DNA from: Halieaceae bacterium
Lineage (GTDB): Bacteria > Pseudomonadota > Gammaproteobacteria > Pseudomonadales > Halieaceae
Assembly (NCBI GenBank): GCA_902613175.1
Contig: CACMGJ010000001.1
Span: 37,569-101,568, forward strand
DNA: 64,000 bases
Reading direction: 5' to 3'
The translations under genes were made by a program, and so were the position numbers. Below, in pieces: positions 8,172 to 17,150 of the stretch; position 1 is the first letter of the stretch; each line of letters begins with the position of its first letter. Below the pieces are notes generated by a model. That model ran no database searches. It worked only from the letters and a program-made list of their open reading frames with translations, and was not told the DNA's origin.

Positions 8172-9485
8172 ATGACATGGTTGAATCAAAAGCCACCGGG
8201 CTTAGATGACATCTTTGATCGACATGGTAGCCCACACGCAATAGCGGGGGAGGCCATTGCGGTGGTCGACGAAAATGCGCATCTGTCTCTATCGAACGCA
8301 TTGAGAGAGAGTGAGGCCACAACGGCCGCGCTCTATATTCATATTCCATTTTGCCCTAGTCGCTGTCTTAGCTGTGATCACCTCACCATTGTCGAACACG
8401 ATCACAAGGTAATGGATCGCTACCTAGCTGACCTGCACGATGAGTTGGCGTTAATGGCAGGGCAGTCAGGATTATCTTTACAGATAAACCGTATCCATAT
8501 CGGAGGGGGCTCGCCGAACTATCTTGACGACGTTCAACTCGCTAGGCTCATGGCCTCCATTCACGGTGCCTTTGATGTAACGGCGGTCGCGGATATCTCG
8601 ATGGAAATTAATCCTAGACGGACCTCCCGTTCACAGTTGGATTTAATTCAGGGCCTCGGTGTACAGCATCTGCATCTGGAGGTCCGAGACGTCGATGCTA
8701 ATGTGCAGAGTGAGCTCGGTAGAACGCAGTCATTTAGTCTCTTAGAAGACGTTTTTAGCATGGCGCGAGATATGAAATTCGCCAGCGTCAACATGGATTT
8801 GGTTTTCGGCCTTCCAGGTCAAACGTCTAAGTCAATCAAAAACAGCGTTGCGATGATCGCCGAGTTGGCGCCGGATATGTTGGTATGTCAGCAGTACACG
8901 CGACGACCTCAACAATTTCCTCATCACGCGGCGCTTGCTGATGATGCCATGCCCGGTTTGGCCGAGAAGCTTGCGATATTTAATGCGGTGGCGGTGGGGC
9001 TCGAAGATGAGGGTTATGAGTGGATTGGGTTAAACGCATTTGTTCGACCCGGCCATGAGTTCAGTGCAGCGCAAGCGAATGGCACATTGAGGTATAGCGC
9101 ATTTGGGTACAGTGAGACAGACGTTTCGCAGGTCCTCGGTGCTGGATTGGGTGCAGTTAGTGAAGTTGGCGGCCTTGTGGCGCAGAACTTTGTTGATATC
9201 GACGCGTGGCAGATTGCTATCGGTCAAGGCCGTCTCGCAACCCAAGTAATGATTGAGACTAGCGAGTTTGAAGTTGCGCGCCGTTCGGTTATGCGTCGAT
9301 TAATGTGTAACAGTGAGGTGCCAATTTCCTCAGTTCACCAACCAGATGTGTTAACCCTCATAGAGTCTCTAGAGAACCAGGGCTACACCGAACAACGAGA
9401 TGCTCACGTCTATCTAACGGAACTCGGTAGAATGGCACTGCCACATTTTTGGTCGGATTCTTCGCCAAGATTTCGCTGGTTGTAA
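8172..9485 (+). CDS. HemN-like radical SAM protein (divergent; coproporphyrinogen dehydrogenase activity doubtful)
   Basis: LYIHIPFCPSRCLSCD (CxxxCxxC), IGGGSP, NMDLVFGLPGQT, GYEWIG. Several HemN signature residues are changed (see findings). Confidence 0.8.
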   Translation: MTWLNQKPPGLDDIFDRHGSPHAIAGEAIAVVDENAHLSLSNALRESEATTAALYIHIPFCPSRCLSCDHLTIVEHDHKVMDRYLADLHDELALMAGQSGLSLQINRIHIGGGSPNYLDDVQLARLMASIHGAFDVTAVADISMEINPRRTSRSQLDLIQGLGVQHLHLEVRDVDANVQSELGRTQSFSLLEDVFSMARDMKFASVNMDLVFGLPGQTSKSIKNSVAMIAELAPDMLVCQQYTRRPQQFPHHAALADDAMPGLAEKLAIFNAVAVGLEDEGYEWIGLNAFVRPGHEFSAAQANGTLRYSAFGYSETDVSQVLGAGLGAVSEVGGLVAQNFVDIDAWQIAIGQGRLATQVMIETSEFEVARRSVMRRLMCNSEVPISSVHQPDVLTLIESLENQGYTEQRDAHVYLTELGRMALPHFWSDSSPRFRWL

Positions 9486-9497
9486 GCTTTGTAAGCC

Positions 9498-10070
9498 TCA
9501 GGCGCGTAGAGGTATCTGCCCACTAAATTCGTCTTTAATACGTTGCCACTCCATGGCAAACCAGGGAGTCGTCTGCATTTTGTCATCATAGAGCCATTCA
9601 TCCACCGTATTGATGGAGACCCATGTGGTCTCTGCAATCTCGGTAGGGTTGAAGTCTGACTGGGGTCTACCGGTCACGTTTCCAATAAATACGGAGCACA
9701 GCTCGTGTTCACTGCCAATATCATTGAACATGGCGTGATATTGAAACTTGAAGAGGAATGTCAGTTGAGACTCTAAGTTGAGTTCCTCTTTGAGGCGGCG
9801 TTTGGTTGCTTGAGTCAGGGATTCTCCGCGTCTGGGGTGGCTGCAACAGGTATTTGACCAGTACTCAGGCCAAAGTGGTTTAAGTGAACTTCGTTGCTGA
9901 AGCAGCACCTCGCCCTGATCATTGAATAAGAAAATCGAAAACGCTCTATGCAAAACACCATTGCCACGATGCGCAGCCGCTTTCTCCTCAAAGCCTATGA
10001 CAACGTCATCGCTATCTACGAGCATCAGTGGCTCGTTGTCGAAGGATACGATGTCGGATGTCTCTTCCAT
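9498..10070 (-). CDS. idi: Isopentenyl-diphosphate delta-isomerase type 1
   Basis: LHRAFSIFLFN, LLQQRS..K, WSNTCCSHP, RRLKEEL, EHELC, TPWF. Confidence 0.95.
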   Translation of the reverse strand: MEETSDIVSFDNEPLMLVDSDDVVIGFEEKAAAHRGNGVLHRAFSIFLFNDQGEVLLQQRSSLKPLWPEYWSNTCCSHPRRGESLTQATKRRLKEELNLESQLTFLFKFQYHAMFNDIGSEHELCSVFIGNVTGRPQSDFNPTEIAETTWVSINTVDEWLYDDKMQTTPWFAMEWQRIKDEFSGQIPLRA

Positions 10071-10121
10071 AACGTAAGTTTAAAGCGGTTTTGCTGTGTG
10101 CGTCAGGTAACAAAAGGCAAT

Positions 10122-10263
10122 AAAAAGACCCACTCCTTGGGGAAGGATACGTGAACTGAGCAATTCGGGCGGAGATCGGCGATCGTAGCTCTGGGGGCAG
10201 GGTGATCGCGAAGTCCCGATTGGGTTCACATCGCAGCGTCTGGGGGCAGCCGGTGCGTGGGTC
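10122..10263. ncRNA. Candidate structured RNA: three-armed junction with identical GGGG/CCCC tetraloops downstream of pufA
   Basis: Closing stem GACCCAC(10127-33)/GTGGGTC(10257-63). Arms: TCCTT-GGGG-AAGGA; GTGAAC...CTG-GGGG-CAG...GTTCAC; CGCA...CTG-GGGG-CAG...TGCG. A U-tract follows on the minus strand. Confidence 0.5.
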
Positions 10264-10264
10264 G

Positions 10265-10296
10265 AAAACATCAGGGCCCTTTTTAAGGGCCCGATT
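10265..10296 (-). terminator. Hairpin/terminator after pufA
   Basis: GGGCCCTT-TTT-AAGGGCCC inverted repeat ~15 bp after the pufA stop, followed on the minus strand by TGTTTT. Confidence 0.6.
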
Positions 10297-10308
10297 CTAT
10301 GACGGTAC

Positions 10309-10512
10309 TTACTGCCGTGAGGGAGGGAGTGCCTCCGCCATGGCCGCAGGTGCTGCATATGGGCCATCGATCCAGTTGTACTTCGCAGAGCTCAACAGGA
10401 CGAAGTGGATCAGCAGTGCCACTGAGAACAGGAAAACACCCTGCGCTACCAGTACCCGACGTGGATCAAAGACCTTCCAGATCCTTGAGAAGGGCTGTAA
10501 TGTTTTTGCCAT
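10309..10512 (-). CDS. pufA: Light-harvesting complex 1 alpha subunit
   Basis: [25 protein letters not shown] (BChl-binding His), YNW. RBS GGAGA. Confidence 0.95.
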
Positions 10513-10585
10513 TTCATTTCTCCATTTGTATTCACGACAAGCCCGTCAAGCCGGACAGTCGCTTGGTTAAGGTGATAGCCTCGGA

Positions 10586-10738
10586 TTACATTCCGAACCA
10601 GGGCTGCCACATCCATACAAGTATGTGAGCTCCGCTTGCGATAGCCACAAACGTCCACATGCCTTTTTCGTAAGACCGCATGAACTCGCTAGCTTCGCTA
10701 GCTGTGAGTCCTGACATGCCTACATTTTCGTCACTCAT
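10586..10738 (-). CDS. pufB: Light-harvesting complex 1 beta subunit (50 aa)
   Basis: MSDEN..SGLTASEASEF...AHILVWMWQPWF. GGAGG RBS just before ATG at 10738. The track ORF to 10879 is an over-extension. Confidence 0.92.
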   Translation of the reverse strand: MSDENVGMSGLTASEASEFMRSYEKGMWTFVAIASGAHILVWMWQPWFGM

Positions 10739-10969
10739 GGTTTTACCTCCCATGTAGTAGTTCGCGATCTGTCGCAGCTCGGTAATCAATACCTTGATAC
10801 GACGTCCTTCACCGGAATTAGGGTGGAAACACCTTGATTCCGCTGATCTTCCCGGAGAGATGTCTGTGTAAGCACGCATCCCCAGGGAGATAAGTCCACA
10901 CTGGTGTGTGGTTACGAGGGCAGGGCAGATGCCCTCGCAGTTTTATTCATTCACTCTCTGTCGAGTTAT

Positions 10970-12064
10970 CTATTGGTCGCCACCTGTCGCCATGTCAGCC
11001 ATATCACTCGCCTCAGGCATTTCGGCCGCTTCGTCAGCGGGCGCTTCAGGCTCTGGTCGCGCAAGACGAGCAAGGTTTGGGTAGTCCTTGATCATGTTGG
11101 CGCCCAGTAGGGGTTTGTAAGCACCCTGGTGGCAGGTTTCGCAGTTAACTTTCTGCGCATCACCCAGCTTTCCAAGACGGTGAGGCGGTAGCCAGTCGGT
11201 GGTGGGATCAACGTAGTCGTTGTTCATCTCACGGACCATTCGAATACCATGCCAGGCTGTCGCGCGCTGAGGAGAGCTTTCCTCCCAACGTGAGAAGGCG
11301 CGCGAGTTGTGGCAGTAGGTGCAATTCACGCCTAACGCACTGGAGAAGTGCATCATTAGGCTATATCCCCACTCAGATTCTTTGAGTGATACACCGCCCT
11401 CATCCCGCAGCGCAGTTGTGCCCGCATGACGCCCGTTTCTTGCGTCGAGTAAGTAGGGTGTGAATGGGTCAACTGGCAACGATGACAATCCCGCAGCGAC
11501 TGAAGAAACGTTTTGCATCTGGTTCTTCATGCCACCTGCGACCGTATGGCCGGGATTGATGTTCCAAACGTACTCAGGCACGTTTTTCCCGCGGTGGCAG
11601 GTATAGCAAGTGACACCCGCGCCGCCGACGTGTTGGCTCCAGTTCTCGTTGGCGTTCTGAGTCATCTGGATCATTACGCGCGCTACCTTTTTGGTGTAGA
11701 GCGTGTCCGCCGCGAATCCTTCACCCGCAACGTGACAGTAATTACATCCTTCCTCCGGTGAGACCCACTCGGTAATGGCGGCCATCAGACGTGTGAACTC
11801 ACCCACCGATAGGTCACCAAGAACCTGAACGTTTTGATAAACGTCCTTGGACTTAGGTCCGACAGCGGGAACCGCGGGCAGGGCCTCTGGAACGATATTG
11901 TTTGCGTCCAGCTCGTTCAGGGTGTCGGGATTGTAAAGACCCTCCATCCCCGTGCCGCGGTAGCCCCATTGAGTTGATTCGGGTGGTGGCATTTCACAGC
12001 CACCGAGCAGTAGCACCGTACCCAGACCAACAGTTGCAAATAGTTTGGTCGTTAGCGTTTTCAT
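10970..12064 (-). CDS. pufC: Reaction-centre tetraheme cytochrome c subunit (lipoprotein)
   Basis: Lipobox LLLGGC; GYRGTGM; four CxxCH motifs (CNYCH, CYTCH, CTYCH, CETCH). Confidence 0.97.
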
Positions 12065-13984: not shown

Positions 13985-14191
13985 TTAAATTCTCATGAAG
14001 GCGTAGGGCGCAACGCTGTGTGCTGCACGCTTAGCCTCCTGCCAACAGTTAAGTTCGTGTTGCCGCACTAACTTCACCCGCGTAATCACCGCCTGCCCCA
14101 AAAACCACACGAATACCGTGATAAACAGCAGACGAAACTGCAGGTGTTCCCAGACAGTTTTACGCTCTGTATGTCGCTTGCTTGTGGTCAT
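13985..14191 (-). CDS. pufQ: PufQ-like small membrane protein (68 aa)
   Basis: One TM segment and a C-terminal EAKRAAHSVAPYAF resembling the PufQ tail. Sits between bchZ and the puf structural genes. GGAGGA RBS before ATG at 14191. Confidence 0.65.
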   Translation of the reverse strand: MTTSKRHTERKTVWEHLQFRLLFITVFVWFLGQAVITRVKLVRQHELNCWQEAKRAAHSVAPYAFMRI

Positions 14192-14244
14192 GCTTCCTCC
14201 CGTCATCGATGTTTGTCGTGCCGTGTTGTTGTAATTAGCGTTCC

Positions 14245-15693
14245 TCATGCAACACCCCTCAGCTGAAGGTCATGGCCTGCATTGAGTACATGTATGTCCG
14301 TTACGGAGTCCGAGTCATCGGCTCGAGCCGCTTGCTCGGCGCTATCCCGGAGACGCTTGGCTGCAGAGATGCGAACCAAAACGGGTTGCTCTTCAATGAT
14401 CTGATCAAGAAGTACTTGCGCTTCGTCTAGCCAGGGAAGGCTGGCGCGCGTCGGTGTCGCAATTGTTTGATCAAGGTCAGTGCCTAAAGGCAATATGTTG
14501 AACAGGGCATCAAAGAGTGCGTTGCATACTTCTTGAATAAGATAGCAGGCGCCTGCATAGCCCATGAAGGGTGTGCCCGTATGGCGACGGATAATCGTGC
14601 CCGGCAGCGATGCGGGAATAAACATACTCCGACCGCCAGCCTCGGCCACATACATACGCTCGTTATAGCCACCAAAGACAATAAGAGGACCTGTTCGGTA
14701 GATCGCTTCTCTCACTTCTTTGTTGTCAGGTTTTACGCCCGCTTTTCGCGAATAGTGGAAGGCGCAGGGCAATCCCAGATCCTCCTCTAAGAAGTGACGG
14801 AGTCCGCGTGTGTACGTCTCGGTTGCGACAACGCCAAAGTTGGCTGTTGCGAAGAAGTCTTGAGTGACTGAGCGCCATAGATCCCACACGGGCTTTAGCG
14901 TTGTCATCTTTTCTTGCGCGATAAATGGCTCTGGGTCGATGTCCAGTAGCTCACCTAGCTTTTGCAAGAATTTCGTCGTGCTATCAAGCCCAATAGGTGC
15001 TTGAAGATAGGGTTTATCCAGGGCTTCACATAGTTTTCTGCCGAATTCTCGATACATGCAGATATTGACCGCGGCATCGTCTAGCTTCGGAATCTCATTG
15101 AGGTGACACCCCAATGGGAAGACCATGTTCACCTCAACTCCCATGCCTGCGAGGAGTCGCTGAATCTCGGCGAGATCTGACCAGGTGTTGAAGTAACCGT
15201 AGGCGGGTCCAATGATATTGACCTTCTTGGTTTCCGCGTTAGCGTCAGATTTTTTCGCTTTGCGCTTCTTGGTCGCACCGTACTGCTCCCAAAGCCAAAC
15301 CAGTGCACGATCGGCACTTTGCCATTGATCCTCGTCAATTGTGCGGGGGAGGAAACGTTTGATATTCGTATCTTCGGGCGTTACCCCACCACCAATCATT
15401 TCGGCAATAGAACCCGTTACCACAACCGATGGCTTCTTCGGGTCAAGCGTATGATGAGCGCGTCTCAGTGCGCCTTCTGTTCCATGCTGTCCCAGTTCCT
15501 CTTCAGCGAGCCCCGTGACAACAATAGGGAGTTCGTGTGGTGGTAGGCCATCTGTGTAATGAAGCACCGATGTGACCGGCAGGTTTTCACAACCCACAGG
15601 TCCATCAATGATGACTTGCAGCCCTTTTACAGCTGTGAAGACATAAACAGAGCCCCAGTAACCACCTGCGCGATCGTGATCAAGTACAAGCAT
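14245..15693 (-). CDS. bchZ: Chlorophyllide a reductase subunit Z
   Basis: Starts [14 protein letters not shown]; [10 protein letters not shown]; TAATG coupling to the bchY stop; C-terminal PCP_red-like WLDEAQ...[11 protein letters not shown]. Confidence 0.97.
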
Positions 15694-17150
15694 TAGCAGG
15701 TACCTCCCACGCCAGTTTTCGCGATTATTTCCGGGGTCCATACACCACTGGTTGGGCCTTCACCCACACCCTCAAAGAAAGATTCCATTGCGATCATGCG
15801 CGGCTGATTCGCTAACGCACTGTTGATCACTTGTGCTACTGATCCTGCGCCCGCTGCACCCATGAGTGGGCGCGCAGAGATCAGGTTCGTAAAATACAAG
15901 CTTGGGATTGATCGCTCTTTCGCTTTTTGTACGATTGGTGTCGTTCCTATCACAAGATCGGGCTTAAAGGTTTCCATCGCGATGAGGTCATCCTCTAGCG
16001 AGGCTCTGAATTTGACAGAGACACCCTTACTTTCGAGCCATTCGGCATCTAACGCTGAAAATTCGGTTTTAGGGCAAGCTGAGCCAACATAGGAAACGTC
16101 AGCACCGCTCTCTATCAATAGTCTTGCTACAAGAAGCTCAGAGCCTTCGTAGCCTGATAGCGTAATTTTGGCGTCAATGGGGTTGTTATCCAGTGCGGCG
16201 CGAATAGCACTTTTTTGCGTGCTGATTGCGGCGTCGATGGACGCGCGATCGGCACCCAAGAGTTCGCCCATGGCTTCAAGCCATGCGGCGGTACCTTCAA
16301 CACCGACGGGTGCCGAGCCTAACAATGGTCGTCCTGCAGCCCTAAACTGACGTGCTGTGGCCGCGTAAAATGGGTGAATCATGGCCGCTGCTTTGCAATC
16401 GAGTGCGCCATAAAGCTCGCGCCACTCTCGAGTAGGAACGACGGGGCCTGCTGCGGCGTCCAGTGAGTCCAGCAGGCGATCGATGGTGATCGCATCGACA
16501 GGGAACATTTCGCCCACAAGCGCTACGGTCGGCTTATCTTTTTGAGATTCACTTTGGACGGGGCGTGCAACGGGACCCGCTTCGATTTCACCCCGAGCGT
16601 ATTCCAGCATGGCGCCAGCAAGTACATCTTTGGCCTCAGCGTGAGTTGGGACTCCGAAGCCAGGAACATCGATGCCCACAATTCGCACACCATTGATTTC
16701 CTTGGGTAAAAGATCAAGAGGTACGCCTGACGCGGTTGGCACACACAAATTAATGATAACGACCGCGTCATTAGCTTCAGGGTCGGCAAGATCATGAGCG
16801 GCTTCGCGAATATCCTCGAAGAGCTTTCCCGTCACGAGGGACTCTGAGTCGAAAGGAACGTAGCCAACGGTCCGCTTAGCGCCGTAGAAGTGCGATGTAA
16901 AGGTCAGACCATAGACGCAACAGGCCGATCCTGACAGAACCGTCGCCGTTCTGCGCATTCGCAGACCGACACGTAAAGAGCCAAACGCAGGGCACATGCT
17001 CTGGGGTTGATCGTGTGGGCCCTTGGGATAATCCTCGGCAAACTGCGCCATGAGCTCGTTCTTGCCCGCTGCCGTGGCTGCCGCTGCCAATTGCTCGGCA
17101 CTCGCGTGACAACCCAGGTCCTTTGTCTCGATGATGTCGGCGTCAGACAT
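15693..17150 (-). CDS. bchY: Chlorophyllide a reductase subunit Y
   Basis: [46 protein letters not shown]. Start probably 17150 or 17156, overlapping the bchX end. Confidence 0.96.

Follow-up and report, generated by a model that had tools for sequence, protein, structure and literature searches.

What is the DNA element between pufA and idi at the end of the puf operon in this Halieaceae genome: an RNA of the photosynthesis operon, a leader of the gene that follows it, or a repeat? Within the window, by which we mean the whole stretch of 64,000 nucleotides analyzed, the minus-strand order is pufL, pufM, pufC, pufB, pufA, a GC hairpin, a U-rich linker, the element, a U tail, and idi. A sequence-only reading had proposed a structured RNA with C-rich loops where the operon ends, and our analysis supports this for a single-copy RNA in which one C-rich loop is conserved. 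What lies between pufA and idi, on the minus strand that carries puf, is a genuine RNA structure, conserved in a genus that we take to be Luminiphilus. It is a new genus-wide structured 3'-UTR RNA, likely with a terminating and regulatory role, and the three-loop form seen here is a local elaboration of it. In transcript order, the features are as follows.

10586-10738, minus strand: pufB, LH1 beta (Pfam PF00556)
10309-10512, minus strand: pufA, LH1 alpha (Pfam PF00556)
10274-10292, minus strand: GC hairpin directly after pufA, terminator-like by scan and bridged by a high-depth RNA contig
10264-10273, minus strand: U-rich single-stranded linker, a putative RNase E site
10122-10263, minus strand: the element, a four-way-junction RNA (closing stem P1; arms P2, P3, and P4) with a U tail, from folds, homologues, and covariation
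10257-10263, minus strand: P1 5' strand, GACCCAC, its GACCC core nearly invariant across the genus
10233-10256, minus strand: arm P2, the 5' hairpin, with a C-rich loop in the near clade only and free sequence elsewhere
10149-10231, minus strand: arm P3, the long central arm, its stem strongly covarying
10187-10202, minus strand: P3 apex CCCUGCCCCCAGAGCU, 16 invariant nucleotides, a candidate seed whose conserved C-run is mostly unpaired
10188-10198, minus strand: perfect complement of the sdhC ribosome-binding block, inside the P3 apex
10134-10147, minus strand: arm P4, the 3' hairpin, with a C-loop here and often a UUCG-type loop in homologues
10127-10133, minus strand: P1 3' strand, GUGGGUC
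10117-10126, minus strand: U-rich tail after P1, a likely intrinsic terminator or Hfq tail
9498-10070, minus strand: idi, isopentenyl-diphosphate isomerase, downstream of the element (NCBIfam NF002995 / TIGR02150, above cut-off)

The motifs that had drawn attention to the locus are where they were reported to be. On the plus strand, GACCCAC lies at 10127 and GTGGGTC at 10257, TCCTTGGGGAAGGA at 10134, and the helices of the long arm at 10151 and 10224 (GTGAAC/GTTCAC), 10165 and 10215 (TCGGG/CCCGA), and 10179 and 10204 (GCGATC/GATCGC). The repeated 11-mer TCTGGGGGCAG, at 10190 and 10239, has only these two copies in the 1.9-Mb assembly, both inside the element. Folding gives the proposed three-armed shape on each strand: the plus strand reaches -60.1 kcal/mol (z -2.91, with 2 of 200 shuffles equally good) and the minus strand -48.8 kcal/mol (z -3.67, with none of 200). 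The element starts 46 nt past the pufA stop codon, and pufA is adjacent at all sufficiently long loci except one. A scan of 9400-11200 found no sigma-70 promoter of the element's own, and blastn and nhmmer found no second copy in the assembly, which is 59% complete. Rfam 15 returned no match across the window at the gathering threshold and none for 10050-10330 at E ≤10, in line with the suggestion that the RNA is undescribed.

The operon around the element shows several further features. One RNA contig of high depth has its start at 10876, and between pufC and pufB there is a GC hairpin (10915-10937), which suggests a separate start or processing site for pufBA near 10876-10937. The pufB leader carries an invariant 16-nt block with an in-frame ATG upstream. 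Between bchZ and pufL, at 13985-14248 on the minus strand, is an open reading frame that we assign as PufQ-like; it has no Pfam or NCBIfam match, and tblastn finds homologues in other genera at 31-43% identity. At locus L074 (genome G091), pufBA directly follows the pufQ-like gene with no pufLMC between them, and no pufC match occurs between pufM and pufB at L072, L080, and L091.

The case for a conserved structure rests on homologues of the region. A DNA search recovers it in 31 of 36 same-genus genomes and in none of 24 genomes of other families. When 41 pufA-idi spacers of the genus were folded, 40 gave a closing stem P1 enclosing exactly three arms, that is, a four-way junction, and the U tract with which the element had been said to end on the puf strand is present as a U-rich tail (at least 5 T in 8 nt) in 37. 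The central arm carries a C-rich loop in 38 of the 41 by scripted call; the exceptions are L026, where a four-C central loop is visible by eye, L020, which has a five-arm fold, and L048, where the C-loop is on P4 only. Three identical tetraloops had been described, which is true of this sequence but not of the genus, as all three arms carry a C-loop in only 13 of 41 homologues, those of near clade A. A C-run hexaloop, NCCCCC, describes the loop across homologues better than a tetraloop does. What relatives conserve is thus one C-rich loop on the central arm, while the threefold display is restricted to a clade. P3 alone bears the C-loop in 23 of 41 homologues, and among 54 distinct metagenome variants, 36 carry a single C-run.

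Covariation had been proposed as a check on the regions downstream of pufA, and it is strong among the Luminiphilus homologues. A covariance model trained on nothing but seven sequences of the distant clade C recovers 33 of 37 loci over their full length, with the hand-set boundaries and always on the puf strand. In a 24-sequence alignment fitted to this model, whose members are kin and not independent, 40 of 47 pairs show double-sided changes and 90.7% of cells are paired. None of 500 shuffles of the fitted alignment reaches the observed pairing, and slid partners are 34-46% paired. Unfitted within-clade alignments agree, with 4 of 45 and 11 of 47 pairs compensatory. The 16-mer at the P3 apex is invariant in all 11 rows from clades A and C plus L013 (G036) while its stem covaries, and the whole 30-nt apex, stem included, is identical in clades A and C. 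The apex C-run is mostly unpaired (probability 0.38-1.0 per base). The pairing probability of P1 is ~1.0 in four of four homologues tested, with no competing fold, and junction and arm sequences vary freely among homologues.

The same comparison decides the strand. It had been cautioned that the wobble pairs fit the plus strand better, and the lower raw energy does lie there, but the z score is better on the minus strand and the comparative data pick the puf strand. With each of four clades folded on both strands, the puf strand has the higher covariation term and fewer non-canonical cells in all four; in clade C, structure conservation is 0.90 on the puf strand versus 0.70. UUCG-type loops are often found on P4 of homologues, a qualitative statement given that the census counted sequences twice. 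On the basis of the clade covariation, the U tail, and the UUCG-type loops, we consider the question settled for the C-loop strand. A plus-strand RNA with GGGG loops is rejected, its covariation term being lower in four of four clades. A count of G-U versus A-C columns was discarded as strand evidence because the structure had been predicted on the puf strand, which biases it.

Among 150 genomes of the family, the model is significant only at pufA-idi of the genus; it misses three divergent genus members, and its reach is therefore limited. Seven matches outside the genus (E 0.04-0.73) have neither puf nor idi beside them and seem fortuitous. When the genome collection was scanned with a sequence pattern, 112 loci came up, 52 of them beside puf and/or idi. 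All 52 have three arms and lie directly upstream of idi; the other 60 have no such context and look like chance, as do three viral matches. Of 78 metagenome matches to the apex, 67 are flanked by pufA and idi and 10 miss one neighbor at a contig end; idi is next downstream in 75, and the remaining three contigs end too soon. At one metagenome match (L441:440-743), foreign sequence runs into the element, and the joint falls precisely on the U-rich linker ahead of P1; this may reflect either a faulty assembly or a chimera formed at a processed 5' end. Genomes G022, G293, and G309 have two copies on separate contigs, with puf/idi context where checked (G022 and G309), and are likely mixed strains in bins.

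A simpler relative of the element is found in sister genus g48, where a single hairpin with a TCCCCC loop and a covarying stem follows pufA in seven of seven genomes. These long hairpins (L049, L051, L054, L055, and L071-L073) lie ~25-60 nt past the pufA stop codon and are probably the minimal form of the Luminiphilus element. No C-loop follows pufA at any of 18 loci of the remaining genera. In a PufL/PufM/BchZ tree of 31 genomes, one branch (support 96/92) splits the loop-bearing from the loop-less lineages, and for this reason the data fit a single origin of the loop.

RNAs that use C-rich seeds, such as 6C RNA, RsaE, and RNAIII, pair unpaired C-run loops with G-rich ribosome-binding sites. 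They come from unrelated phyla, whereas the element has no Rfam match and its pairing is only predicted. Several features of Hfq-dependent 3'-UTR sRNAs are found here, namely a stem and U tail at an mRNA 3' end (37 of 41 homologues) and a conserved, accessible seed, and an Hfq gene is present in five of five genomes. Closer in position is PcrX of Rhodobacter sphaeroides, described as an Hfq-associated sRNA from the puf-operon 3' UTR with proposed RNase E release (PMC9438474, PMC8625941). By that description, the element is likewise at a puf transcript 3' end in an hfq-bearing host. However, PcrX follows pufX in a pufQBALMX operon and targets pufX, pairing with its own puf mRNA, whereas the order here is pufLMC-BA with no pufX at the locus, and no conserved puf site occurs across 24 genomes. 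The loops recall the cuckoo/CcsR RNAs of Alphaproteobacteria, which are described as having variable stems, a conserved C-rich loop motif, and a varying number of loops (PMC4615179, PMC8625941), with CcsR1-4 derived from a 3' UTR (PMC8625941). Both display C-rich loops on free stems. As there described, however, cuckoo RNAs have CCUCCUCCC in every loop of two to four adjacent hairpins and are associated with a DUF1127 gene. The element has NCCCCC(A/G), mostly one per RNA, on hairpins that a closing stem gathers into a four-way junction, and its host is a gammaproteobacterium; a search of five genomes found no DUF1127 (PF06568) or CcaF1-type protein. The element thus resembles PcrX in position and cuckoo/CcsR RNAs in its loops, yet fails the membership features of both. 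In Rhodobacter, a pufBA 3' hairpin is described as stabilizing the LH1 message, whose abundance exceeds that of the reaction-centre message (PMC10253847). The element shares with it a structure at the LH1 message 3' end and, weakly, the same depth step, but here the structure is at the operon end, follows an ordinary hairpin, and is a 130-140-nt multibranch fold with a sequence-conserved loop.

Expression was read from assembled metatranscriptome contigs of four runs (X1, X2, X9, and X10), which carry no strand, ends, or levels and in which relatives pile up at the conserved element. With that qualification, contig depth in X1 and X9 is ~600-1400 over pufA and the element versus 5-8 over idi, and it drops beyond the U tail. 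A contig of X1, 10189-10876, runs from pufB through pufA and the hairpin as far as mid-element. Depth is flat in X2, and in X10 neither pufBA nor the element is covered by a contig. These contigs weakly suggest that an abundant pufBA RNA has the element as its 3' end. In X2 and X9, the contig ends at 10263 were rejected as RNA ends, as the assembly graph branches there at strain differences.

If the apex is a seed, what would it bind? No target common to the whole genus was found. Across 24 genomes, 20 kb of photosynthesis cluster hold no conserved complement of the apex, and the idea of a PcrX-like photosynthesis sRNA fared poorly, with no conserved target at puf, puh, or bch ribosome-binding sites. 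Among loci with an exact complement, 30 of the 44 in clade C and 30 of the 42 in clade B were inspected, and they revealed no common ribosome-binding target. In a genome-wide ranking of 1683 initiation regions, with opening costs included in the energies, three regions stand apart: an rseP-like gene (a name that is our own interpretation of its sequence) at -19.1 kcal/mol, a Na+/H+ antiporter-like gene at -18.2, and sdhC, identified by TIGR02970, at -17.9. The next is at -14.9, and the pufB initiation region ranks 382.

The sdhC ribosome-binding site, rank 3 of 1683, contains an 11-nt perfect complement of the loop. Of 96 genus genomes, 25 have this block, GCTCTGGGGGC, among them every one of the 19 known to belong to clade A or G036, in which the adjoining spacer is variable. 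It is present in 0 of 30 clade C genomes, listed by a sequence pattern used for clade C only, despite their identical loop; G-to-A differences are seen. Other clades lack the site too. A random C5 loop finds a perfect 11-mer match to at least one initiation region in 9% of trials, and invariant blocks of at least 11 nt occur at pufB and sucA as well (3 of 23 genes). The sdhC leader also folds into a hairpin that sequesters its own Shine-Dalgarno sequence, so the block could be conserved without any sRNA. A nested cofold of element and sdhC leader does not form the loop duplex, though such folding cannot model loop-loop pairing. We regard sdhC as the best local candidate target, by predicted pairing. 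Its short leader (L101:728-790) forms an imperfect hairpin that buries both the GTG start and the Shine-Dalgarno sequence, and this leader might itself be regulatory. Genomes G230, G265, and G005, considered as non-phototrophs with the sdhC site, carry bchH and have contigs broken near puf, and provide no counter-example.

Other candidates were set aside. The pufQ coding region pairs best in this genome and one close relative, is weaker in a second, and is absent elsewhere. A near-perfect complement at the hemN ribosome-binding site is found in G002, G007, and G006 only, and the G-run Shine-Dalgarno occurs in loop-less genomes also; a hemN count of 11 of 21 versus 1 of 16 was thrown out, as automatic start picking had overlooked visible sites. 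At the hemN starts in L092 (G002), L210 (G007), and L094 (G006), the complement is to each genome's own, different loop, and hemN is possibly a further lineage-specific target. The sucA site is conserved, yet it is a self-hairpin and ranks 115. There, in clade A and G036, the Shine-Dalgarno sequence (G000:C21 ~16633-16655) lies in a small conserved hairpin whose GGGG loop mirrors the element loops, and a loop-loop contact is conceivable.

The reading that we prefer, tentatively and short of calling it probable, is that this 3' end has two uses: P1 and the U tail would terminate and shield the pufBA RNA, and the central C-loop would be a seed for GGGGG-type ribosome-binding sites with lineage-specific targets. 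From the observed structure, strand preference, conservation, location, and copy number we infer a course of termination, processing, Hfq use, and targeting. Transcription would pass through the first post-pufA hairpin; P1 and the U tail would stop most transcripts, leaving idi little expressed; the folded domain, resistant to nucleases, would persist, and an RNase E cut in the U-rich linker may release it. The C-loop, probably with Hfq help, would then block GGGGG-type Shine-Dalgarno sites that differ by lineage, sdhC being the best candidate here. We think it unlikely that the RNA is dedicated to cross-talk, its C-loop shutting the sdhC ribosome-binding site during LH1 synthesis and lowering succinate dehydrogenase, with the loop triplicated after the target was gained.

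The main rival, doubtful to us but a serious contender, is that the element acts only in cis: the junction would terminate and stabilize pufBA mRNA and set the LH1:reaction-centre ratio, and the C-loop would be a protein site or a tertiary contact rather than a seed. The absence of a common trans target in the clade-wide tests, the sameness of the 30-nt apex, including its stem, in clades A and C, and the RNA contigs that link the element with pufBA all agree with this, and in Rhodobacter a 3' hairpin is described as stabilizing pufBA and setting the RC:LH1 ratio (PMC10253847). On the other hand, loop-less genera manage with a plain hairpin (C-loop in 0 of 18), no DUF1127/CcaF1-type protein is found in any of five genomes, and an exposed C-run that shifts arms (in L048 it is on P4 alone) and that one clade has in triplicate resembles a base-pairing module. 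An attenuator or riboswitch in the idi 5' leader, with the junction controlling read-through from pufA to idi, is improbable. Its attraction is that the element lies next upstream of idi in 52 of 52 genome-collection and 75 of 78 metagenome matches and ends in a U tract, and that pairing of the C-loop with the G-rich 3' strand is conceivable in principle. However, linkage to pufA is equally tight, so this context does not discriminate; P1 forms with probability ~1.0 in four of four homologues with no competing fold, the junction and arms vary freely, unlike a ligand pocket, and only 6 of 24 idi initiation regions have a G-run of at least four.

The three near-identical loops, here and in 13 of 41 homologues, had also led to the proposal of a multi-loop RNA that titrates a protein by a CsrB-like logic. 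This is weakened by the same count, a single loop being the commonest arrangement (P3 only in 23 of 41; one C-run in 36 of 54 metagenome variants), and the loops on the RNA strand read CCCC, not GGA; we regard it as a poor prospect. A mobile repeat of the REP/MITE type, a small ORF, or a chance structure is scarcely credible. There are terminal inverted repeats, and some frames are open in the near clade, but the element is single-copy, with one locus per genome and model matches among 150 family genomes at pufA-idi only, neither of two clade C sequences has an open frame, and covariation is strong. These alternatives are effectively refuted.

We found no prior description in OM60/NOR5 phototrophs in the literature, where supplementary marine metatranscriptome sRNA lists could hold the RNA unnamed. 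The element adds a well-supported, uncatalogued RNA family to these organisms, with a series that runs from the single loop of g48 through the Luminiphilus junction to the triplicated loops of one clade. Even if it acts in cis only, the element, as a covarying multibranch terminator or stabilizer whose C-loop is portable, offers a clean model of the gain of seeds and targets by 3' UTRs. Aerobic anoxygenic phototrophs are described as lowering respiration in the light (PMC12654162). If the predicted pairing is true, an RNA that is made along with the LH1 message and blocks a message of the respiratory chain would tie photosystem synthesis directly to lower respiration in a marine aerobic phototroph.
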